Notes under the pieces: generated by a model | What the model was told of the DNA's origin: nothing | What the model saw: only the letters and a program-made list of their open reading frames with translations | The model's database searches: none | Shown: positions 870-24,087 of the stretch, one piece after another | How positions within the stretch are numbered: the stretch's first letter is position 1 | Layout of the letters: each line of letters starts with the position of its first letter | Source of the DNA: a virus | Taxonomy: Duplodnaviria; Caudoviricetes | Direction: 5' to 3' (one strand) | Virus record (IMG/VR): IMGVR_UViG_3300008116_000002 | DNA length: 64,000 nt | Program-made: the position numbers and the translations under genes

Positions 870-941
870 ATGTGGACTAAACCTACAGCAAAAGATATGC
901 GTTTTGGATTTGAAATCACAATGTATATCGCAAATAGATAA
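870..941 (+). CDS. pqqA: PQQ precursor peptide PqqA (23 aa; missed by the ORF track)
   Basis: Manual translation MWTKPTAKDMRFGFEITMYIANR*; has the E-x-x-x-Y core (EITMY) and the MWxKP...R-x-G-F-E pattern; SD AAGGAG upstream. Confidence 0.93.
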   Translation: MWTKPTAKDMRFGFEITMYIANR

Positions 942-14384: not shown

Positions 14385-14461
14385 GCCCACTTAGCTCAGT
14401 CGGTTAGAGCACAATCTTGATAAGGTTGGGGTCCCTGGTTCGATTCCAGGAGTGGGTACCA
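14385..14461 (+). tRNA. tRNA-Ile(GAU)
   Basis: Cloverleaf, anticodon loop TTGATAA, encoded CCA. Confidence 0.95.
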
Positions 14462-14462
14462 A

Positions 14463-14538
14463 GTCCCATTCGTCTAGTGGCCTAGGACATCGCCCTTTCA
14501 CGGCGGTAACAGGAGTTCGAGTCTCCTATGGGACGCCA
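14463..14538 (+). tRNA. tRNA-Glu(UUC)
   Basis: Cloverleaf, loop CTTTCAC, CCA. Confidence 0.95.
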
Positions 14539-14581
14539 TTTGATATGCCGATTGAGAAATAGTACAGTCAACATATCAAAT

Positions 14582-14659
14582 GGTAAGGTGGCTGAGTGGT
14601 CCAAAGCAGCAGTCTGCAAAACTGTAAAGCCGCCGGTTCAAATCCGGCCCTTACCTCCA
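14582..14659 (+). tRNA. tRNA-Cys(GCA)
   Basis: Cloverleaf, loop CTGCAAA, U73 discriminator, CCA. Confidence 0.93.
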
Positions 14660-14664
14660 GATAA

Positions 14665-14739
14665 GGTCTCAAAGTGTTCATGGACGCACATATGCCTGTC
14701 ACGCATAAAGAAGGGGATCGTTACCCCTTGAGACCGCCA
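14665..14739 (+). tRNA. tRNA-Asp(GUC), atypical D and T loops
   Basis: Acceptor GGTCTCA/TGAGACC, loop CTGTCAC, G73, CCA; T loop reads GATCGTTA instead of GTTCGA. Confidence 0.85.
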
Positions 14740-14780
14740 GAACCCCCGGGATCCCTTACCCGGTAATATTACTAGGGGGT

Positions 14781-14946
14781 ATTGACAGCCACAATGTCAG
14801 GGTGTCGAGATCGGAGCTACCTCAAAACTCCTGGGAAGGAGTGACGAAAAGTCTCGAAGGACAGCGCTGCAACTGACCTTAATAAAAGCGGACGGACAGT
14901 GAAACAACTCAGGAAAGGGCGAGTGCTGGGTGCTCGTAGCTTTCCA
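14781..14946 (+). ncRNA. Putative structured ncRNA A ending in CCA
   Basis: GC-richer intergenic stretch with several stems; GAGCTAC/GTAGCTT helix followed by T-CCA; shares a GGACAG..AACAACTC.AG motif with ncRNA B. Confidence 0.5.
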
Positions 14947-14948
14947 TT

Positions 14949-15030
14949 GCCCATGTGGTGAAATGGTAGACACGCTTGCCTTAGGAGCAAGTACGAGAGT
15001 GTGGCGGTTCGAGTCCGTCCATGGGCACCA
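14949..15030 (+). tRNA. tRNA-Leu(UAG)
   Basis: Cloverleaf with variable arm, loop CTTAGGA, CCA. Confidence 0.93.
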
Positions 15031-15122
15031 TATTGAAGTGTTGTTTAGGGTGGCAGGTAAAAGTTTAACAAGACTTTGAGGGCTGGAATTCCCGATCTGT
15101 GAACAGCAGAACACTTCAATAT

Positions 15123-15197
15123 GGGGAATTGGCGTAATTGGGAACGCAGTAGCTTTGCAAGCTTCAGTCAGGAGTTCGAATCTCCTATTCTCCACCA
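15123..15197 (+). tRNA. tRNA-Ala(UGC)
   Basis: G3:U70 pair, loop TTTGCAA, CCA. Confidence 0.94.
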
Positions 15198-15204
15198 AAT
15201 ATTT

Positions 15205-15282
15205 CGGGGAGTAGCTTAGTCCGGTTAAAGCGCCTGCTTTGGGAGCAGGAGATCGAGAGTTCGAATCCCTCTTCCCCGACCA
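15205..15282 (+). tRNA. tRNA-Pro(UGG)
   Basis: Cloverleaf, loop TTTGGGA, CCA. Confidence 0.95.
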
Positions 15283-15289
15283 GTTTTAT

Positions 15290-15364
15290 TCCAGAGTAGC
15301 TCAGCGGCAGAGCCGCGGACTGTTAATCCGTTGGTCGTTGGTTCGATCCCAACCTCTGGAGCCA
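15290..15364 (+). tRNA. tRNA-Asn(GUU)
   Basis: Cloverleaf, loop CTGTTAA, CCA. Confidence 0.95.
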
Positions 15365-15370
15365 GTTTTA

Positions 15371-15455
15371 GGATGACGAGCAGCATTGGTGACTGCAGCA
15401 GACTGTAAATCTGTCGCCTCAGGCATACGGGGTTCGATTCCCTGGTCATCCACCA
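15371..15455 (+). tRNA. tRNA-Tyr(GUA)
   Basis: Cloverleaf with variable arm, loop CTGTAAA, CCA. Confidence 0.93.
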
Positions 15456-15458
15456 TAC

Positions 15459-15533
15459 GGGAGATTAGCTCAGTGGTAGAGCAGCGCCCTTACAAGGCGA
15501 AGGTCAATGGTTCGACCCCGTTATCTCCTACCA
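15459..15533 (+). tRNA. tRNA-Val(UAC)
   Basis: Cloverleaf, loop CTTACAA, CCA. Confidence 0.95.
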
Positions 15534-15541
15534 GATTTTAT

Positions 15542-15618
15542 CTGGCGTTAGCTCAGTTGGATAGAGCAACAGCCTTCTAAGCTGTGGGTCGGGGGTTCGA
15601 ATCCCTCACGCCAGGCCA
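15542..15618 (+). tRNA. tRNA-Arg(UCU)
   Basis: Cloverleaf, loop CTTCTAA, CCA. Confidence 0.96.
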
Positions 15619-15624
15619 TACAAT

Positions 15625-15698
15625 TGGGGATTAGTGAAATGGTATCACACCGGATTTTGATTCCGAGGTCGTAAGTTCGATTCTTACATCCCCTGCCA
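15625..15698 (+). tRNA. tRNA-Gln(UUG)
   Basis: Cloverleaf, loop TTTTGAT, CCA. Confidence 0.93.
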
Positions 15699-15730
15699 AA
15701 TCGTTATTAAAGTGTTAATAAAACAAATGC

Positions 15731-15759
15731 TTGACAAGAAATTGATTCGGTGTTATAAT
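15731..15759 (+). promoter_or_regulatory. Strong sigma70-type early promoter
   Basis: TTGACA-17 bp-TATAAT with extended TG. Confidence 0.88.
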
Positions 15760-15788
15760 TATGATATAATGTAAATAAGGAGATACAA

Positions 15789-15929
15789 ATGCAACGAAAA
15801 CGTATCGCCAAGCCCCGTAACCCGCTGGTGGCTTTGGCATTGTTTAAGAAAGCGGGTAAGCATCAAAAAACAAACAAAGCATTACGTAGGGAATATAGAG
15901 CGGGCATAGCTCAGTTGGTAGAGCAGTAG
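15789..15929 (+). CDS. Small Lys/Arg-rich protein whose stop lies inside tRNA-Lys (46 aa; missed by the ORF track)
   Basis: SD TAAGGAG; MQRKRIAKPRNPLVALALFKKAGKHQKTNKALRREYRAGIAQLVEQ*. Confidence 0.75.
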   Translation: MQRKRIAKPRNPLVALALFKKAGKHQKTNKALRREYRAGIAQLVEQ

Positions 15930-15975
15930 ACTTTTAATCTATGTGTCGTGGGTTCGAATCCCTCTGCCCGTACCA
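15900..15975 (+). tRNA. tRNA-Lys(UUU)
   Basis: Cloverleaf, loop CTTTTAA, CCA. Confidence 0.95.
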
Positions 15976-16056
15976 TATTAAAACACATTTCGAGCGGTGT
16001 TCCGATATCGGCCAGCCCGCCCCAAAGTAGATGTCTAGGGTAGTGTGTTTTAATAT

Positions 16057-16405
16057 GGTGAAGAAGCAAGGTTGGGATTTCGTCAGATAATGACGGTGCG
16101 CTGAAAAAACCCAGTAATGCGAAGCCGAAAGGCATCCTTGCGGTAAGCAGAAAGTTGGCGTGGCGACCAATCATCATAAAGTTCCGGTTACTACTTTCCT
16201 GAAAGTAGCGTATGGTAAACGAGAAAGTCCCGGTGGCTATGGCACCGTTAGCGAGACATAGACTCTGTATTTCGATGCGGTGTCTCCGGTGTCTCAGACA
16301 ACATAGCAACGTGGACACTACGCAGCAAACCGCTATTAGTGTTTGGACAGGGCAACAACTCCAGCATAGGGGCGATCTGTGGAAAGACGTGGCCTAAGCA
16401 AGAAT
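16057..16405 (+). ncRNA. Putative large structured ncRNA B (about 350 nt)
   Basis: Many stems in an AT-rich genome: GCAAGG/CCTTGC, CGTCA/TGACG, GCC-GAAA-GGC, CTACTTT/AAAGTAG, CGGTG/CACCG, GAGACA/TGTCTC with an inner UUCG hairpin; no credible ORF; flanked by tRNAs. Confidence 0.6.
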
Positions 16406-16410
16406 ACGAT

Positions 16411-16486
16411 GGTGTCTATAGTGTAGTGGTCTGCACGCCAGATTGTGGGCCTGGCAGTATGAGTTCAATCCTCATTAGACACCCCA
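16411..16486 (+). tRNA. tRNA-His(GUG)
   Basis: G-1 and C73, loop TTGTGGG, CCA. Confidence 0.9.
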
Positions 16487-16540
16487 AAGTTAATCGCGTG
16501 TGAGGCGTGGGGCTTCGGCCCCTAACCTATTTGTACTTGT

Positions 16541-16630
16541 GGAAGTGTGGCAGAGTCCGGTTTATTGCAACAGTCTTGAAAACTGTCGAACAGAAATGTT
16601 CCGTGAGTTCGAATCTCACCGCTTCCGCCA
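16541..16630 (+). tRNA. tRNA-Ser(UGA)
   Basis: Long variable arm, loop CTTGAAA, G73, CCA. Confidence 0.95.
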
Positions 16631-16643
16631 CTAAGGAGTAATT

Positions 16644-16793
16644 ATGCCAATGTATGAAACAACAGTAAGAACGCCACAGGGTGAAGTAAAAGATAGAGTG
16701 TTTGCAAAAGATTTACAAGAAGCAAGAATGCTTTTTGAACAAAGACACGGACCTAGAAACGTACCATATATACCTAAAGTAATTCCAAGTTAG
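16644..16793 (+). CDS. Small hypothetical protein (49 aa; missed by the ORF track)
   Basis: SD TAAGGAG; MPMYETTVRTPQGEVKDRVFAKDLQEARMLFEQRHGPRNVPYIPKVIPS*. Confidence 0.7.
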   Translation: MPMYETTVRTPQGEVKDRVFAKDLQEARMLFEQRHGPRNVPYIPKVIPS

Positions 16794-16805
16794 AAGGAGA
16801 AACAA

Positions 16806-17369
16806 ATGCCTGCAATTTTTTTAGTTAGTGATACTCATTTCGGCCATGCAGGCGTTTGTAAATTTCTACGTGACGATGGCACTAAATTACGTCCATGGGA
16901 TAACCCCGAGGACATGGATGAAGAAATGGTCAAGCGGTGGAATGAAACTGTTAGACCAAAAGATAAAGTTTATCATTTAGGAGATGTAGTTATTAATCGA
17001 AAGGCTTTAAAAACGCTTAGTAGATTAAACGGTGAAAAGGTCTTAATCAAAGGTAATCACGACATCTTTAAACTTGAAGAATACACTGAGTATTTTAAAG
17101 ATGTTCGAGGTTATCATGTACTGAATGGAATGATTCTAAGCCACATTCCTATTCATGAAGAAAGCCTTGCGAGGTTCGGGACTAATATTCATGGACATCT
17201 ACATTACAATCGTGTAAAGAAAAATGAAGTCATTGATCCTCGTTATCACTGCGTATGTGTAGAGCATACCGACTACCGCCCAATTCTTTTTGAGGATGTC
17301 ATTAAAAAGATTCAAGAAGAGGGTGGGCATATTGGATTTAAAAATGGCAATGGACCTATTATAGATTGA
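16806..17369 (+). CDS. Calcineurin-like metallophosphoesterase
   Basis: SDTHFGH, HLGDV, KGNHD, SHIP, IHGHLH motifs. Confidence 0.93.
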   Translation: MPAIFLVSDTHFGHAGVCKFLRDDGTKLRPWDNPEDMDEEMVKRWNETVRPKDKVYHLGDVVINRKALKTLSRLNGEKVLIKGNHDIFKLEEYTEYFKDVRGYHVLNGMILSHIPIHEESLARFGTNIHGHLHYNRVKKNEVIDPRYHCVCVEHTDYRPILFEDVIKKIQEEGGHIGFKNGNGPIID

Positions 17370-17379
17370 GGAGTTTGAA

Positions 17380-17586
17380 TTGAATACTAAGTTGAAAGCA
17401 ATTAAACAGACAGCTATGATGGTAGTTATCATATGTCTTATTCCTATGATTCTAACGTTTTTGTTTACTTCCGAGATAGCATCTTATATTTTTATCATAG
17501 GTATGGTAGCATTTTTTATATACATTATGTATTCTGTAAATCTAGCATTTATAGAATTTGAGGAAAAGTTTAAAAATAAGGAGTAA
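17380..17586 (+). CDS. Small two-TM membrane protein
   Basis: TTG start after GAGGAG; two hydrophobic helices. Confidence 0.55.
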   Translation: MNTKLKAIKQTAMMVVIICLIPMILTFLFTSEIASYIFIIGMVAFFIYIMYSVNLAFIEFEEKFKNKE

Positions 17587-17592
17587 GTATTT

Positions 17593-17687
17593 GGAGCGTT
17601 GGCCGAGTTGGTCGAAGGCACTTTCCTGCTAAGAAAGCATCTGGGCAAAAACCTGGATCATTGGTTCGAATCCAATACGCTCCGCCA
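17593..17687 (+). tRNA. tRNA-Ser(GCU)
   Basis: Long variable arm, loop CTGCTAA, CCA. Confidence 0.94.
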
Positions 17688-17692
17688 GCAAT

Positions 17693-17724
17693 GCCCCCGT
17701 AGTTTAATGGTAAAACAGCGGATT
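17693..17724 (+). pseudogene. Orphan 5' half of a tRNA, broken in the anticodon loop
   Basis: GCCCCCG-TA-GTTTAATGGTAAAAC-A-GCGGA-TT gives the 5' acceptor strand, D arm and 5' anticodon strand; no matching 3' half found; a late promoter follows directly. Confidence 0.75.
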
Positions 17725-17725
17725 G

Positions 17726-17733
17726 TATAAATA
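17726..17733 (+). promoter_or_regulatory. T4-type late promoter of the endonuclease gene
   Basis: Exact TATAAATA, then SD AAAGGAG. Confidence 0.8.
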
Positions 17734-17752
17734 ATAGTAAAGGAGAAATCTT

Positions 17753-18403
17753 ATGCTATTATGCAAATTTTGCCAAAAAGAATGTAAGAATGAAAACTCA
17801 TTGAGGAATCACAAGAGACTTTGTAAAGAAAATCCAAATAAACAACCACACCCTAAAGGTAATAGCGGAAAAGTTGGTTGGAATAAAGGGCTAACTGCAG
17901 AAACTGATGATAGAGTTTTTGCTAATAGAGAAGCTTTACGAAAACAAAGAAAAGAAAATGGTTCTAATTGGATAGGAAGAAAGCATTCAGATGAAACTAA
18001 AGAATTATTATCAATAAGAGCGTCTGAACGTTTATGTAAAAATTCAAAATACTCTATAAATTTTGAATATAAACCTGGAATCATATTAGAATCTTCATAT
18101 GAAGTTGAAACTGCTAAAATTTTAGATGAATTGAATATAGAATGGATTAAAGTTAGGACTGGTTATAAATGGGATGACAATGGAAAGATAAGAAGATATG
18201 TCCCTGATTTTTTCCTTCCGAAATATAACATATTTCTAGATCCAAAAAATGATTATTTGATTAAAAAAGACAAAATAAAAATAGATTCTGCAATGAAACT
18301 TAATTCAATAACTATTATTGTGTTATCAAAAGATGATTTGAATGTAGAATCTATAAAAAGTAAATTGCCTACCGTAGCTCAAGGAGAGCAGGGTGCCTTA
18401 TAA
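17753..18403 (+). mobile_element. Free-standing homing-type endonuclease (Zn finger + NUMOD3-like + PD-(D/E)XK-like domain)
   Basis: CKFC...H...C, GWNKGLT, GRKHSDETKELLS, SSYE...YVPDFFLPKYNIFLDPK; very AT-rich. Confidence 0.75.
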
Positions 18404-18457
18404 GCACTTCGACCAGATAAGTCCCAGGTTGTGGTTCGATTCCGCACGGTAGGACCA
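18368..18457 (+). tRNA. tRNA-Ile(UAU) with long variable arm
   Basis: Acceptor CCTACCG/CGGTAGG, A73, loop CTTATAA, T arm GGTTCGATTCC, CCA. Confidence 0.8.
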
Positions 18458-18459
18458 GA

Positions 18460-18534
18460 GGTAATGTAGCATAACGGTAGTGCACCGCCTTCATACGGCG
18501 CAAGGTATAGGTTCAAATCCTATCATTACCACCA
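18460..18534 (+). tRNA. tRNA-Met(CAU), probably elongator
   Basis: Paired G1:C72, loop TTCATAC, CCA. Confidence 0.85.
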
Positions 18535-18544
18535 TAGTTTCAGA

Positions 18545-18620
18545 CGCGGATTAGGGAAGAGGTCATCCCGCTAGGCTCATAACCTGGAGATCGCTGGTTC
18601 GAATCCGGCATCCGCAACCA
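18545..18620 (+). tRNA. Initiator tRNA-fMet(CAU)
   Basis: C1:A72 mismatch, CGCGG start, loop CTCATAA, CCA. Confidence 0.9.
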
Positions 18621-18628
18621 GTTTATAA

Positions 18629-19216
18629 ATGAATATGAAAATTTATGATAATGTTTTACCGAATCAAACTTTTTCTAATTTAAAAAATAGAATTTTTGAT
18701 TCCAATTTCCCTTGGTTTTTTAGTAGAACTTCTGTAGAAAATCCTATAGAGGATAATATTTTAACCTATAGTTTTTCTCATGCGGTTATGAATCACGGTG
18801 TGCCAAATTCTATAATATTTGACACAATTAATAGTTGCATCTTAACCATGTTAGATAATTGTAATATAAAACTAAATATGTTATTAAGTATTAGACTTGG
18901 ATTACTACAACCAGTGTCTAGAGAAAATCATAGTAATGATCCGCACGTGGATAGTCAAGAAAAACACAAGGTGGGTTTATTCTATTTAAATACTACAGAT
19001 GGCGCAACAACAGTATATAATGAAAAGTACGATCCTTCTACAAAGATGGATCCAACAGAATATTATAGATCGGTTCTAAATAGAAATCTTTCTATTCAGT
19101 CCAAAGTAGAATGCACTGAAAATAGATTAGTTATTTTTGATGGTATGTATTATCATTCAAGTACTACTCCTACCGATGTACCTAGGAGAGTAGCATTAAA
19201 TTTTAATTTTGTATGA
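18629..19216 (+). CDS. 2OG-Fe(II) oxygenase-like protein
   Basis: PHVD (HxD), LFYLNTTDGAT, ENRLVIFDG, HSS...RVALNFN double-stranded beta-helix pattern. Confidence 0.75.
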   Translation: MNMKIYDNVLPNQTFSNLKNRIFDSNFPWFFSRTSVENPIEDNILTYSFSHAVMNHGVPNSIIFDTINSCILTMLDNCNIKLNMLLSIRLGLLQPVSRENHSNDPHVDSQEKHKVGLFYLNTTDGATTVYNEKYDPSTKMDPTEYYRSVLNRNLSIQSKVECTENRLVIFDGMYYHSSTTPTDVPRRVALNFNFV

Positions 19217-19218
19217 TA

Positions 19219-19296
19219 CCGCCATTAGCTCAATTGGAATAGAGCGCAACGCTACGGACGTTGAGGTTAGGGGTTCGAGTCCTTTATGGCGGGCCA
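19219..19296 (+). tRNA. tRNA-Arg(ACG)
   Basis: Cloverleaf, loop CTACGGA, CCA. Confidence 0.94.
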
Positions 19297-19874
19297 GTTT
19301 CTGAAGGTGGAATTGCTATTAATTCTTCAATACCAAAGTAATAGTCTTTAAGAATTTCTGACATTAGATCGCATATTTTTATATTTTTTTCAAAACCAGC
19401 AAGATCATTTTTTCTACCTTCTATTTGCTTTTCAACAAGTTCAAGTATTAAATTTTTTCTTTTGGTTTTAGAATTTACTCGACGTAGTACTTGTTTTAAA
19501 TGTTCGAGATGAACATTACATACATTAATATTGTGGTGCATATCTGTTCGTATTTTTATAACCTCATCCTGCATTAGGACAATTAGATCATCTGTTTCTG
19601 GGTTTAAGTTAGGAACAAGTCTTGACACCATCTGAGAAATATGTTCTAATGCAGCATTGCGAAGAGTTAGATCTTCTGAGGACTCACCTAACAGATCAAA
19701 TTCTTTTCTTCGAATAGGATCGATTAGAATTTCATATGCAAGTTTAATACGAACGAATATTTGTTCATCCCCACCCTTGTCGGGATGATGCACTTGAGCC
19801 AATGAACGAAATTTTATTTTAATTTCTTCATCTGTTGCATCAATCGGAATATCTAATTCGATGTAAGGATTCAT
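19284..19874 (-). CDS. J-domain (DnaJ-like) protein
   Basis: NPYIELDI...FRSLAQVHHPDKGGD...AYEILIDPIRRKEFD. Confidence 0.9.
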   Translation of the reverse strand: MNPYIELDIPIDATDEEIKIKFRSLAQVHHPDKGGDEQIFVRIKLAYEILIDPIRRKEFDLLGESSEDLTLRNAALEHISQMVSRLVPNLNPETDDLIVLMQDEVIKIRTDMHHNINVCNVHLEHLKQVLRRVNSKTKRKNLILELVEKQIEGRKNDLAGFEKNIKICDLMSEILKDYYFGIEELIAIPPSETGPP

Positions 19875-19912
19875 GGCTATAAATTATTTTATAGTATTTA
19901 TTAGGAGATAGT

Positions 19913-20095
19913 ATGTCAGGAAAAGGATCTAAACCAAGACCATTTGCAATAACCAGGGAACACTTTGTAGAAAACTGGGATATGATTTTTAACAAAGAAA
20001 ACAATACTGGTACAGATAAAAATGAGTATCAAGACATTCTTTCAACCGAGGAAGCAGTATTATCAGCTTTCGAAAACTTAAAGGAAGTAAAATGA
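19913..20095 (+). CDS. Small hypothetical protein
   Basis: SD TAGGAG; MSGKGSKPRP...; ATGA-coupled to the next gene. Confidence 0.75.
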   Translation: MSGKGSKPRPFAITREHFVENWDMIFNKENNTGTDKNEYQDILSTEEAVLSAFENLKEVK

Positions 20096-20991
20096 ATCTC
20101 GCTGGTGTTAACGGCAGCATAGCGGTCTCCAAAACCGAAGGACGGGGTTCGAATCCCTGGCGGGGTGCCAAATATATTGCTCTACTACTTGCATTCGTAA
20201 CTTGCTTTGCGTCTGCGCATGAGCCTAAAAAGAAAAAGAAAAAGAAAGTAGTTACTGCGGAAACTGCAAGCTATGTGGTGTACAACAATACAAAAGATGC
20301 TTACGAGTATATTAGAGAAAAAGAAAAGGTTCGCCCAATAGCAAGTGTCACTAAGCTAATGACGGCAATGGTTGCTCTAAATTATGATTTGAATTTAAAT
20401 CGAGAACTTAAAATTCAATCTAAGGTAGGTGGGACTTTACCGAGAAACAAAAGTTATACTAGGCAAGAATTGTTTGGAGCAATGCTTGTTCGAAGTGATA
20501 ACTCCGCGGCAGAAACTTTGGCTAGTGATTTTCCTGGAGGTAGAGAAGCCTTTATTCGTGAGATGAATAAATTTGCAAACTATATCGGTATGCGAGATAC
20601 AAACTTCGATGATCCAACAGGACTGAGCGCTGCAAATACTTCGACAGCCACAGATGTTGCGGCGATGGTTGCACATGCAGCACAATATACTTTGATTCGA
20701 GAAACTAGTACAAAGAAGCAGGTTGAAATTGATACTCAATATAAGAGAAAAATTAGAAAACTTGTTTTAAACAATACAAACAAACCTGTTCTTTTTAACT
20801 TTGATGATATTGTCGTTAGTAAAACAGGCTTTACCTCCAGAGCAGGATATTGTTTGGCTTTGGCAGTTGAACGAAACAATCAAAGATATTCTGTAGTTAT
20901 TTTGGGTTCTAGAAATAAGCAAGCTAGAATTCATAAAGCCGAGGACATTTTGTATAATCATATTGCATACAAAGATATTGACACTAATTAA
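20092..20991 (+). CDS. D-Ala-D-Ala carboxy/endopeptidase (peptidase S11, PbpG/DacA-like), with tRNA-Trp nested in frame
   Basis: SxxK (SVTK), SxN (SDN), KTG motifs; signal peptide KYIALLLAFVTCFASA. Confidence 0.9.
   Translation: MNLAGVNGSIAVSKTEGRGSNPWRGAKYIALLLAFVTCFASAHEPKKKKKKKVVTAETASYVVYNNTKDAYEYIREKEKVRPIASVTKLMTAMVALNYDLNLNRELKIQSKVGGTLPRNKSYTRQELFGAMLVRSDNSAAETLASDFPGGREAFIREMNKFANYIGMRDTNFDDPTGLSAANTSTATDVAAMVAHAAQYTLIRETSTKKQVEIDTQYKRKIRKLVLNNTNKPVLFNFDDIVVSKTGFTSRAGYCLALAVERNNQRYSVVILGSRNKQARIHKAEDILYNHIAYKDIDTN
20096..20170 (+). tRNA. tRNA-Trp(CCA)
   Basis: Acceptor ATCTCGC/GCGGGGT, loop CTCCAAA, T arm GGTTCGAATCC, G73, CCA. Confidence 0.88.
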
Positions 20992-21006
20992 GAAAGAATA
21001 TATAAT
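20978..21006 (+). promoter_or_regulatory. Sigma70-type promoter
   Basis: TTGACA-17 bp-TATAAT. Confidence 0.8.
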
Positions 21007-21029
21007 TAGACTAGTTCAAAGGGGAAGTT

Positions 21030-21503
21030 ATGAGAAAAAAGTTGGACATTCAAGAAATCAAAAGTTTCATTGAATCGCAAAGCCCGGAAACTAAAATTTA
21101 TCTTGGAGCGGACTCTGAACGATATAAACATAATGGTAAATGGTATGCGGATTATACTATTGCAGTTGTAGTTCATATTGATGGTCGCCATGGGTGTAAA
21201 ATTTTTGGTGAGGTTCAAACTGAACTAGATTATGATGCAAAAAACAGCAAACCATCTATGCGTTTGATGAATGAGGTCTACAAGGTTGCAGAATTGTATC
21301 AAAAGATTGTGGATGTCGTCGAGGACAGACACGTAGAAATACATTTGGATATTAACCCAGATGAAAAACATAACAGTAGTATTGTGATTCAGCAAGCAGT
21401 TGGTTATATCAAAGGTATGTGTAATGTGGTACCTATGGTTAAACCAAAAGCATTTGCCGCAAGTTATGCAGCAGATAGACTTAAAGAATTGCTTGCAGCA
21501 TGA
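21030..21503 (+). CDS. RNase H-like YkuK-family protein
   Basis: IYLGADS, RLMNEV, EIHLDIN, VKPKAFAASYAADR. Confidence 0.8.
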   Translation: MRKKLDIQEIKSFIESQSPETKIYLGADSERYKHNGKWYADYTIAVVVHIDGRHGCKIFGEVQTELDYDAKNSKPSMRLMNEVYKVAELYQKIVDVVEDRHVEIHLDINPDEKHNSSIVIQQAVGYIKGMCNVVPMVKPKAFAASYAADRLKELLAA

Positions 21504-21508
21504 AATTC

Positions 21509-21582
21509 GCCCTCTTAGTTAAATGGTATAACAGTTGATTTGTAATCATCTATTGGCAGTTCGATTCTGTCAGAGGGCACCA
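21509..21582 (+). tRNA. tRNA-Thr(UGU)
   Basis: Cloverleaf, loop TTTGTAA, CCA. Confidence 0.94.
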
Positions 21583-21598
21583 TTTTAGAAAGGTCGGT

Positions 21599-21799
21599 AT
21601 GTTAGGATTGGAACAGGCAGGTGTATTTTTAGGAGCAACAATTCTTATTGGCTTTGGTATAGCATTTATTGGAATGGTTGTGATTTTTCTTAATAACATG
21701 ATTCATAGATTTTGGAAGCCGTTAAACTGGTTCGGAAAGTATTTTAACTTTAACGAGCCAACCAACCCTGAGCCTCCAAAAACTAAACCTTCATTATAA
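21599..21799 (+). CDS. Small membrane protein
   Basis: Single long hydrophobic helix; SD AAGG. Confidence 0.6.
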   Translation: MLGLEQAGVFLGATILIGFGIAFIGMVVIFLNNMIHRFWKPLNWFGKYFNFNEPTNPEPPKTKPSL

Positions 21800-21808
21800 G
21801 GAGTTTGT

Positions 21809-21961
21809 ATGCAAAAGGAATTACTAAAAGAAAATGGACCTAAGTGTGGTTGTGGTCGTAGCCCAAGTGGGTATTGCATTGGTTGGCATGGACTTTCTGA
21901 ATCGGAATATAAAGAGCGTTTGGAACAATACAAGCAAGATCTAGGCGAGAACGACAAATAA
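21809..21961 (+). CDS. Small Cys/His protein resembling a CDGSH iron-sulfur motif (50 aa; missed by the ORF track)
   Basis: SD TAAGGAG; KCGCGRSPSGYCIGWHG. Confidence 0.7.
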   Translation: MQKELLKENGPKCGCGRSPSGYCIGWHGLSESEYKERLEQYKQDLGENDK

Positions 21962-21971
21962 ATAGTTACAT

Positions 21972-22045
21972 GCGGGATTAGTTTAATGGTAAAACGAAAG
22001 CCTTCCAAGCTCTAATCATCGGTTCGATTCCGATATCCCGCTCCA
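21972..22045 (+). tRNA. tRNA-Gly(UCC)
   Basis: GCGGGAT acceptor, loop CTTCCAA, U73, CCA. Confidence 0.95.
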
Positions 22046-22049
22046 TAAT

Positions 22050-22337
22050 ATGCGTATTCAAAAAGATGAGACTTACGAGCAATGGTCAGAAAAGGTTCGT
22101 CTTTTTGAATATGGAGTTGCACTGCAAAGAATTGCTAAAGGCGACGATATAGATATTGTTTTGGAGTCTATGTCGAAAAAAATTAATCAAAAACTTTTGC
22201 ATCCTTTGATCGAAAGCATCAAACAATCATGTCAAATAGATTATGATCCTTTGATCGCAAGAAAAAATTACGAAGAAAATTACTTAGGAAAAGCAAATCC
22301 TGTAGCAGATCATATGAATGATGTAGACTTCTATTAA
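22050..22337 (+). CDS. Protein resembling the isolated dimerisation domain of glutamyl-tRNA reductase
   Basis: ALQRIAKGDDIDIVLESMSKKINQKLLHP resembles the HemA C-terminal A-L...G-E-D...L...NK-L-H-P pattern. Confidence 0.6.
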   Translation: MRIQKDETYEQWSEKVRLFEYGVALQRIAKGDDIDIVLESMSKKINQKLLHPLIESIKQSCQIDYDPLIARKNYEENYLGKANPVADHMNDVDFY

Positions 22338-22367
22338 TCACAAAGACCCCCTTAAACTTTGTGTCTA

Positions 22368-22375
22368 TATAAATA
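22368..22375 (+). promoter_or_regulatory. T4-type late promoter
   Basis: Exact TATAAATA, then SD AAAGGAGG. Confidence 0.8.
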
Positions 22376-22392
22376 GATATAAAGGAGGGTCT

Positions 22393-22821
22393 ATGATAGA
22401 TATTAATGAATTCATTAAAACTAGTAAACAAGAACGGCAATCTCATTTATTATTATCTGAAAAATGTATTGAACGTGGGGGAAATTCGACCAATCACAAG
22501 GGGGTATTAGCTCAGTATTTGAATACCTCTATCCCTTCGGGTAGAATACTTTTATGCCATGCGTGCAACAATGAAAAATGTAGTAATCCAAAACATTTAT
22601 ATTGGGGTACAGACAAAGAAAATATTACTGAAGATAATAAAAAATGGAAATCTGTTTGGGAAAGAACCATTGAAAAATATGGATATGAGGAAGCCTGCAG
22701 GATAAATTCTCGTAAGCAAATTGGAAACAAAAATGGTTCGGGCAATAAAGGTAAATCTAAAACTGAAGAACATAAAAAAAAGATAGCAAAGTCTATTAAA
22801 AGCAATTATAATAAGATGTGA
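22393..22821 (+). mobile_element. Homing-type HNH/His-Cys endonuclease with NUMOD3-like tail
   Basis: LCHACNNEKCSNPKHLYWGTDKEN; KGKSKTEEHKKKIAKS; own late promoter. Confidence 0.75.
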
Positions 22822-22831
22822 TGTATTTAAT

Positions 22832-22917
22832 GCGAGTGTGGTGGAACGGTATACACTTTGGACTTAAAATCCAACGCCCGTAAGGGATTGAGGGTTCAAA
22901 TCCCTCCACTCGTACCA
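22832..22917 (+). tRNA. tRNA-Leu(UAA)
   Basis: Variable arm, loop CTTAAAA, CCA. Confidence 0.95.
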
Positions 22918-22948
22918 GTGTTTTATATTTTTATTTTAAGGAGATTGA

Positions 22949-23485
22949 ATGAAAACAGTAGGTGATAAACTTGAATCATTTTCAGTTACCGGTGTTAATC
23001 CCGGTAAGGATGATTTCTTTACTATTACAGAAAAATCTTTTGAAGGTAAGTGGAAAGTAATTGTTTACTATCCAAAAGATTTTACATTCGTATGCCCAAC
23101 AGAAATCGTAGCATATGATAAATTGTTCCAAGACTTTGCAGATCGTGATGCAGTATTGTTGACAGGTTCAACAGATAATGAATTCTGCAAACTAGCATGG
23201 CAACGTAGTCATGAAGATCTTTCAAAGATCAAGCATATTCAATTTGCTGACACCGCACGTGAATGGGGCGTATCTTTGATCGAGCAATTGGGTGTGTTCT
23301 ACGCACCGGCAGGCGCAGCACTTCGTGCAACCTTTATCGTTGATCCAGAGAACACCATTCAGCACGTTACCGTAAACAACTTGAACGTTGGTCGTAGCCC
23401 AGAAGAAACACTTCGTATTCTTGATGCGCTACAAACTGGTGAACTATGTGCATGCAATCGCACAATCGGCGGAGAGACTCTATAA
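22949..23485 (+). CDS. ahpC: Peroxiredoxin AhpC
   Basis: YPKDFTFVCPTE peroxidatic Cys; ALRATFIVDP; GELCACN. Confidence 0.96.
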   Translation: MKTVGDKLESFSVTGVNPGKDDFFTITEKSFEGKWKVIVYYPKDFTFVCPTEIVAYDKLFQDFADRDAVLLTGSTDNEFCKLAWQRSHEDLSKIKHIQFADTAREWGVSLIEQLGVFYAPAGAALRATFIVDPENTIQHVTVNNLNVGRSPEETLRILDALQTGELCACNRTIGGETL

Positions 23486-24003
23486 TGACTGCTTGGGTAG
23501 ATACACTAAAAGAAGTAAGTATTCCTGAGTATGCCAAGGATACTAAACTTAATTTAGATGCGGTTATCAAACGTAGTTCACTACCCGCAGAAGAGGCGGA
23601 GGCAATTGCTCTTGCAGCTGCCTTTGCTACAGGTAATAGTAAACTATGGACATGGCTTCACGATCAACTTACAGATCGTAAAGAGGCAGATGCCGCTCTT
23701 ACCGCAGGCGCAATCATGGCACAAAATAATGTATGGTATCCATATGTTGAAATGGCAGATGATGCGAACCTAAAAGGTCTTCCTGCTCAACTTCGTATGA
23801 ATGCAATTGCAAGCCATGGTGGTACAACAAAGGCAAGGTTTGAAGCATATAGTCTTGCAGCAAGTATTGTGGGCAAGTGTCATTTTTGTGTAAAAGCGCA
23901 TTACGAAACTTTGAAGCAAGAAGGTTATACTGTAGAACAATTACGAGACATTGGTCGTATTGCTGCAGTAATGAAAAGTGTTGCAAGTGTTTTAGCTAAT
24001 TAA
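23485..24003 (+). CDS. ahpD: Alkylhydroperoxidase AhpD
   Basis: Start reassigned to the TAATG-coupled ATG; SIVGKCHFCVKAH; MAQNNVWYPY. Confidence 0.93.
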   Translation: MTAWVDTLKEVSIPEYAKDTKLNLDAVIKRSSLPAEEAEAIALAAAFATGNSKLWTWLHDQLTDRKEADAALTAGAIMAQNNVWYPYVEMADDANLKGLPAQLRMNAIASHGGTTKARFEAYSLAASIVGKCHFCVKAHYETLKQEGYTVEQLRDIGRIAAVMKSVASVLAN

Positions 24004-24010
24004 AGCACAA

Positions 24011-24087
24011 GGGCCGGAAGCTTAATTGGTATAAGCGTCCGACTCATAATCGGGGGACAGTGAGTTCGAGTCTCACCCGGCCCACCA
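24011..24087 (+). tRNA. tRNA(CAU), probably Ile2 (lysidine type)
   Basis: GACTCATAATC anticodon arm typical of Ile2, A73, CCA. Confidence 0.85.

Follow-up and report, generated by a model that had tools for sequence, protein, structure and literature searches.

The stretch of DNA analysed here, hereafter the window, is 64,000 nt long and belongs to an uncultured T4-like myovirus of freshwater. On its + strand, at 870-941, lies an intact ORF of 23 codons, translated as MWTKPTAKDMRFGFEITMYIANR and closed by a TAA stop. It is flanked by phage genes on both sides, gp62 and RegA upstream and orf73, Hsp20 and gp43 downstream, and the series continues with UvsX and gp41 and then with 25 tRNA genes. 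The features of the locus are the following.

337-771, + strand: regA, translational repressor (PF01818, 159 bits, E 5.5e-47), the upstream backbone gene.
763-770, + strand: TATAAATA, a motif resembling the T4-type late promoter, overlapping the regA stop codon about 100 nt upstream of the pqqA ATG.
786-833, + strand: two-tier stem-loop of the pqqA 5′ leader, outer helix 786-791/828-833, inner helix 796-801/817-822.
858-863, + strand: Shine-Dalgarno sequence AAGGAG, 6 nt upstream of the pqqA ATG.
870-941, + strand: pqqA (TIGR02107, 39.3 bits; PF08042, 40.2 bits; homologous ORFs in at least 172 viral contigs; coding-type substitution pattern).
943-957, + strand: hairpin with a TTCG loop directly 3′ of the pqqA stop, the first element of the backbone leader and the right edge of the insertion.
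960-990, + strand: H-type pseudoknot of the backbone leader before orf73/hsp20, outside the pqqA cassette, in which both helices vary but stay paired.
1087-1308, + strand: orf73, small helical protein (conserved in relatives by tblastn), its stop overlapping the hsp20 start, a downstream backbone gene.
1305-1796, + strand: hsp20, small heat-shock protein (PF00011, 57.7 bits), a downstream backbone gene.

An earlier interpretation made from the letters of the window (the sequence-only reading) had described at this position a 23-residue ORF with a PqqA core and a strong Shine-Dalgarno sequence, and had named a search with the PqqA profile as one way to check it. The ORF and its ribosome site are as described, and both curated PqqA models were matched over their full length at about twice their cut-offs, namely NCBIfam TIGR02107 (39.3 bits against a cut-off of 20, E 4e-10, model positions 1-21 of 21) and Pfam PF08042 (40.2 bits against 21.1, positions 1-19 of 19); the score falls within the range of genuine cellular copies (39 against 36-48 bits). 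Members of the family are peptides of about 20-40 residues carrying Glu-x-x-x-Tyr, the source of the PQQ carbon skeleton, and the Glu and Tyr are the residues on which PqqD and PqqE act. The peptide of the window, 23 residues long, has this cross-link motif at Glu15 and Tyr19, together with the leader residues of the family (Trp, Pro and Arg-x-Gly) as Trp2, Pro5 and Arg11. A six-frame check of the window gave 870-941 as the single PqqA-like ORF. Its composition is phage-like, since its GC content (31.9%) is lower than that of the window (37.4%), and a GGAG at the same spacing from the pqqA start is nearly universal in the viral loci shown. Judged by these matches, 870-941 is a real, full-length member of the PqqA family.

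The backbone in which the gene lies has no close cultured counterpart in the searches that we made: the identity of gp43 to its counterparts in cultured phages does not exceed 49%, the nearest being those of Kyanoviridae cyanophages, and a megablast of the first 4 kb against cultured phages returned no close relative and one single match, 155 nt of regA in cyanophage S-CAM7. The DNA of the window was nevertheless found in many freshwater metagenomes. The gene order gp62-regA-(orf73)-hsp20 is kept in the relatives found through RegA, and pqqA was present in only one of the 80 that were sampled, which indicates that it is dispensable for this phage backbone in general. In relatives that lack pqqA (L125-L136), whose gp62 and RegA are up to 89% and up to 88% identical to those of the window, the GGGATGGGA leader begins within a few bases of TATAAATAAT or of a sequence close to it. 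The window has about 170 nt, including pqqA, placed exactly between the late-promoter motif and this conserved structured leader. This comparison indicates that pqqA is a cassette of about 170 nt inserted between the late-promoter motif and the orf73-hsp20 leader. A same-site pqqA was found in 20 IMG/VR contigs, whose gp43 is only 42-83% identical to that of the window. The sequence-only reading had placed the gene in the regA-hsp20 interval behind TATAAATA; several relatives without pqqA carry the motif at the same place, and the placement stands with the refinement that a 73-codon ORF (1087-1308) lies between pqqA and hsp20. The start of this ORF is most likely at 1087 and not at 1012, where a 98-codon ORF had been listed, because the ATG at 1012 sits inside an RNA hairpin conserved among the relatives. 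A Pfam search with the orf73 product gave no significant match; by eye the protein is phasin-like.

Some features further along the window were recorded on the way. A 272-residue ORF at 13216-14034 matches UDP-glucose/GDP-mannose dehydrogenases; the match takes in their central domain and a part of the N-terminal one, and the NAD-binding domain seems to be missing its beginning. The 25 tRNA genes (14385-24087) are interspersed with small ORFs; a D-Ala-D-Ala carboxypeptidase ORF (20092-20991, PF00768) has the tRNA-Trp gene (20096-20170) overlapping its 5′ end.

The motif TATAAATA at 763-770 is the probable start of a transcript carrying pqqA, orf73 and hsp20. It occurs at the same place in 14 of 24 syntenic loci with pqqA and also in locus L124; among the ten relatives without pqqA that are shown, four have TATAAATA and three more its TAAATAAT core. 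The nine copies found in the window correspond to chance level (10 expected), and for this motif it is the placement that is informative, the window-wide count being uninformative: eight of the nine copies have the orientation of the coding strand (+), and of these eight, five are found 17-26 nt upstream of ORF starts, which is the spacing expected of T4-type late promoters. The copy before pqqA is 100 nt from the ATG, compared with 17-26 nt for the copies elsewhere, and this counts against the late-promoter reading. A sigma-70 scan at the pqqA locus gave chance-level matches only.

Structured RNA was found on both sides of the gene. For the stem-loop of the pqqA leader, RNAalifold on eight phage leaders predicted 14 pairs, nine of them with compensatory changes, the eight leaders having been hand-picked and a regular-expression search for the hairpin having given no matches; the single-sequence fold of 778-1000 gave a z of -3.45. 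Downstream, the GGGATGGGA core of the 943-957 hairpin is the element that stands directly after TATAAATAAT in the relatives without pqqA. A terminator scan detected no + strand intrinsic terminator after pqqA (the two matches were one hairpin read on the minus strand), so that the gene runs into the leader shared by orf73 and hsp20, unlike many other phage pqqA copies, which end in a canonical terminator. This leader (943-1086), also present in the relatives without pqqA, comprises the GGGATGGGA hairpin, the pseudoknot, whose third loop is A-rich, then another hairpin and a conserved AACTCGCTTAATAAGGAG-like ribosome-site region. The pseudoknot was tested by a constrained helix search with shuffles, and in six of nine sequences the observed score was attained in no more than 4 of 200 shuffles; its topology recalls that of preQ1-I, and an Rfam search of 600-1400 with E up to 1 returned no match. 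Metatranscriptome contigs from three studies (1570, 912 and 392 nt) span pqqA without mismatch, which would agree with transcription of the gene, but they give no strand, transcript ends or level, and DNA carry-over is possible. Two RNA runs (X15 and X16) also contained short contigs of other pqqA variants over 873-919, with 3-4 mismatches and different starts such as Met-Lys-Trp-Glu-Thr; other pqqA genes, probably cellular, were thus also present in these RNA libraries.

To look for the rest of the pathway, we used as tblastn queries PqqB, C, D and E from one Burkholderiales genome (confirmed with NCBIfam) and two PQQ methanol/alcohol dehydrogenases. Nothing better than an E of about 1 was obtained in the window, in line with the earlier statement that it holds no other pqq genes, and about 1.84 Mb of related viral loci contained no homologue of these proteins. 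Each of five large viral records (164-367 kb; completeness at least 93% in four) contains a single pqqA and no pqqB, pqqC, pqqE or PQQ alcohol dehydrogenase over the cut-off; radical-SAM matches in three large phages were rejected as PqqE, since they reached at most 29 bits against a cut-off of 381. Linkage of pqqA to pqqBCDE is therefore absent in the window and in the related viral records. Such linkage is usual and not family-defining, because genuine stand-alone pqqA copies of cells lack it as well.

The peptide was then compared by tblastn with 50,697 phage records. All 10 records of Methylophilales/Methylophilaceae phages were matched at 65-73% identity, among them Venkman, four Melnitz isolates, MEP301, MEP401, MEP402 and P19250A, as were one spring-water phage and an Acinetobacter phage; no cyanophage was matched in this collection. 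The survey of phage genomes proposed in the sequence-only reading thus showed a lone pqqA in every cultured Methylophilales phage of the collection. Its remark that such a gene escapes standard ORF callers was borne out by the GenBank records inspected (Venkman, P19250A and Melnitz), in which pqqA is unannotated in all three; the Melnitz records instead show a 'hypothetical protein' that covers pqqA on the other strand (Melnitz-1, MZ577095.1, 4961-5069). Lone pqqA-like ORFs with an Arg-Leu-Gly-Phe-Glu core were noticed in Acinetobacter phage MD-2021a (H15/H16) and at IMG/VR loci such as L207, L223, L230 and L249. The viral loci with this core probably belong to other host groups, and with the Acinetobacter phage they indicate that the habit of carrying a lone pqqA is not limited to phages of methylotrophs.

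IMG/VR was surveyed with degenerate DNA patterns, a strict one, which returned 55 contigs with pqqA, and then a looser one fixing only Gly13-Tyr19, which added at least 117 more, for at least 172 in all. In all 172 contigs listed the Trp-x-x-Pro leader is in place, and the ribosome site, ATG and stop, which the patterns did not require, are intact. The first 55 contigs alone represent at least four unrelated gene contexts (T4-like, two others and one that includes phages of about 360 kb). The constancy of Glu and Tyr in the viral copies is by construction, because the search patterns fixed both residues; Trp2, Pro5 and Arg11, none of them fixed by the pattern, are invariant in the 117 contigs of the looser scan, while synonymous differences occur in 31% (Pro codon) and 62% (Arg codon) of the sequence pairs. 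Among all the 23-codon viral copies listed there are 131 distinct nucleotide versions of 55 peptides. This pattern shows that the lone pqqA is under purifying selection in many unrelated phages. Invariant residues over synonymous variation, together with the GC content, make it unlikely that this is a chance ORF, that it is an element acting as RNA only, or that it is a neutral passenger picked up recently.

On the cellular side, pqqA was found in 113 of 401 sampled Burkholderiales genomes, many of which have 2-7 copies. Two streamlined genomes of 1.3 Mb (G179 and G375) have three pqqA genes apiece, all of them stand-alone and with an intrinsic terminator at the end; the distance to pqqE is hundreds of kb in every case, pqqB follows none of them, and neither genome has an operon-linked pqqA. 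Phage P19250A, which infects a streamlined Methylophilaceae, encodes exactly the peptide of these copies, and the two genomes also encode PqqE and PQQ dehydrogenases. In Methylophilaceae, 3-12 pqqA copies per single pqqBCDE cluster have been described (PMC4109929).

The form found in the window, Glu-Ile-Thr-Met-Tyr, is rarer than Glu-Val-Thr-Met-Tyr. Among about 185,000 species genomes, the strict phage-type pattern with Glu-Ile-Thr-Met-Tyr was met in a single one, a MAG of Noviherbaspirillum, where pqqB lies downstream of the gene. Arg-Phe-Gly-Phe-Glu-Ile-Thr-Met-Tyr occurs in 13 of the 401 Burkholderiales genomes, several of them having the exact C-terminal half of the window's peptide; five of the latter were tested, and each encodes 2-7 PQQ alcohol dehydrogenases, and most of the cellular Ile-form pqqA genes with the identical C-terminal half are followed by pqqB. 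From peptide similarity alone, the host would most likely be a freshwater Burkholderiales that makes PQQ and has PQQ alcohol dehydrogenases. The peptide points to a PQQ-making Burkholderiales other than the Methylopumilus/OM43 type, so the host need not be a methylotroph of that type. The sequence-only reading had taken the MRFGFE variant as a sign of a betaproteobacterial host; given the cellular matches this is reasonable, RFGFE being matched by Burkholderiales (former Betaproteobacteria) and by all the cultured Methylophilales phages.

A further element was found upstream of other copies. Of 144 distinct viral pqqA loci, 80 have the motif TAATGATTTTC-nn-TA, an imperfect AATGA-N3-TCATT palindrome, 80-100 nt upstream of the ATG, compared with an average of 9.6 and a maximum of 17 in shuffles. 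In the viral loci checked by eye the motif lies just upstream of a sigma-70-type promoter. Stand-alone pqqA genes of cells share it (L091, L092, L096 and L101), and perfect versions of the palindrome precede cellular copies of this type. In the lineage of the window it is down to one half-site, now part of the covarying RNA stem. The palindrome is a candidate operator, possibly a Fur-box-like or response-regulator site; a literature search found no paper linking pqqA to a Fur box, despite the shared AATGA-N3-TCATT core. A clean promoter swap, with a late promoter taking the place of the host promoter, was rejected on the ground that one subgroup has TATAAATA overlapping an intact palindrome. 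It is conceivable, and we put it forward as a tentative view that is less likely true than false, that pqqA travels as a mobile module exchanged among Burkholderiales chromosomes and at least six unrelated phage lineages and re-wired in the T4-like one. Such a module may consist of operator palindrome, promoter, leader hairpin, 23-codon ORF and terminator, and in the T4-like lineage it may have moved behind the late promoter with loss of the operator. As most phage copies keep the host regulator site, viral precursor synthesis would on this view obey the PQQ regulon of the host. If the peptide variant tracks the host, as that of P19250A does exactly, the 72-bp gene would serve as a host barcode for uncultured phages.

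Considering these data together, we regard it as probable that 870-941 is a functional, phage-borne stand-alone pqqA, acting as a helper gene that would supply a consumable substrate and so sustain PQQ synthesis by the host during infection. This role is suggested by the family membership, the lone-gene pattern, the selection and the multi-copy habit of the hosts themselves. According to this proposal, pqqA would be transcribed during infection, most likely late, as the first cistron of a TATAAATA-driven pqqA-orf73-hsp20 message whose 5′ end would carry the conserved hairpin, and the longer-lived PqqB, C, D and E (and PqqF/G) of the host would convert the phage peptide to PQQ. Since each PQQ made uses up one peptide and a T4-like infection is expected to bring down host transcription, the precursor would run out first; its resupply would keep the PQQ-dependent periplasmic alcohol/methanol dehydrogenases, and with them the energy supply, working until lysis. 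A point against resupply is that PQQ is tightly bound in existing dehydrogenases. The idea of an auxiliary gene that feeds the stoichiometric step of host PQQ synthesis, already put forward in the sequence-only reading, is thus favoured by the lone-gene pattern and by selection, the function itself being predicted from sequence.

The same reading had offered a decoy as the alternative. Such a peptide would occupy PqqD/PqqE, yield no PQQ and shut down host synthesis, for instance so that resources are redirected or competing phages excluded. A gene that comes without any pathway enzyme would be compatible with this, as would the Ile that this lineage has in place of the commoner Val between Glu and Tyr, in a phage-type pattern met in full in a single species genome of about 185,000. 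Against it, the cross-linked Glu15 and Tyr19 and all the invariant leader residues are intact and the score is like that of cellular copies; the Ile form with the identical C-terminal half is found in cellular pqqA genes, most of which precede pqqB; and the peptide of P19250A is the functional form of its host type, identical to that encoded in the 1.3-Mb genomes. We consider a decoy highly improbable on these grounds. Likewise, a neutral passenger, a small piece of host DNA recently acquired and unused by the phage, would account for a tiny, cheap cassette that most relatives of the backbone lack; this is very unlikely in view of the same-site gene in phages whose gp43 is only 42-83% identical, the 55 peptides encoded in 131 nucleotide versions without change at the key residues, the phage-like GC, the undamaged ribosome site, start and stop of all 172 contigs listed, and the compensatory changes in the leader hairpin.

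A role at the regulatory or RNA level, in which the palindrome or the hairpin titrates a regulator of host pqqA or an RNA-binding factor, or a use of PQQ outside the dehydrogenases, such as antioxidant or metal handling, is somewhat less remote and still improbable as the main explanation. The excess of TAATGATTTTC-nn-TA in viral loci (80 of 144 against 9.6 in shuffles), its presence before cellular stand-alone copies and the covariation of the leader hairpin speak for it, but the codon-level selection shows that the peptide itself is maintained, and the lineage of the window retains a single half-site of the palindrome. A regulatory or RNA-level role may exist in addition to that of the peptide.

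Methylotrophs, abundant in lakes and coastal seas, are fed by methanol/alcohol dehydrogenases whose cofactor is PQQ. Resupply of the precursor only, as in the helper role that we favour, suggests that the supply of PqqA limits PQQ synthesis once host gene expression stops; if this is so, a very small and easily overlooked gene would join the viral controls on one-carbon cycling. The idea is open to bench work, as pqqA is present, unannotated, in the cultured phage-host pairs inspected. Viral surveys undercount pqqA because gene callers with a minimum length miss it, and its presence and variant provide a clue to the hosts of abundant uncultured freshwater phages.

Viral pqqA as such is already known, and lone viral copies are common and usually unannotated. 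A virus-encoded PqqA was reported in the Lake Baikal viral population VP_266 (Coutinho et al., 2020, PMC7678222), and pqqA is listed among the viral genes of reservoir-sediment contigs (PMC13188868). These cases are of the same kind as ours, precursor genes on phage contigs with predicted methylotroph or PQQ-user hosts that were read as auxiliary metabolic genes. The representative of VP_266, however, also has a methanol dehydrogenase, whereas the phage of the window and its large relatives carry pqqA alone, and PMC7678222 and PMC13188868 give no anatomy of the locus, for which the insertion site, leader hairpin and promoter context are defined here. In the OM43-phage literature, as far as it could be searched, pqqA is unmentioned.

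The cultured Methylophilales phages resemble the window in having a lone pqqA of 23-24 codons with the MRFGFE core and peptides 65-73% identical. They differ in context, the gene lying in early or lysis regions of siphoviruses, or beside a tRNA in Melnitz, and in the core, which is Glu-Val-Thr-Met-Tyr in these phages and Glu-Ile-Thr-Met-Tyr in the window; some of their copies have their own hairpin or terminator-like structure after pqqA, whereas that of the window runs into the shared leader. The stand-alone pqqA of Methylophilaceae/Burkholderiales chromosomes belongs to the same peptide family, is monocistronic and away from pqqBCDE, occurs in several copies and shares the common palindrome (PMC4109929). 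These cellular copies have an intrinsic terminator and a sigma-70-type promoter, while the window's pqqA has no + strand terminator and a phage late-promoter motif upstream.

For this window, the new elements are the insertion point, now defined, the setting behind a late-promoter motif, and the covariation in the leader hairpin. As to the proposed role, the model of an auxiliary gene for a consumable component is psbA of cyanophages, which encodes D1, a subunit that is damaged and replaced. The likeness lies in the phage supplying only the fast-turnover part of a host energy system while the host supplies the rest; the difference is that D1 is replaced as a subunit and PqqA is a substrate that is chemically consumed, its role in phages being predicted from sequence.
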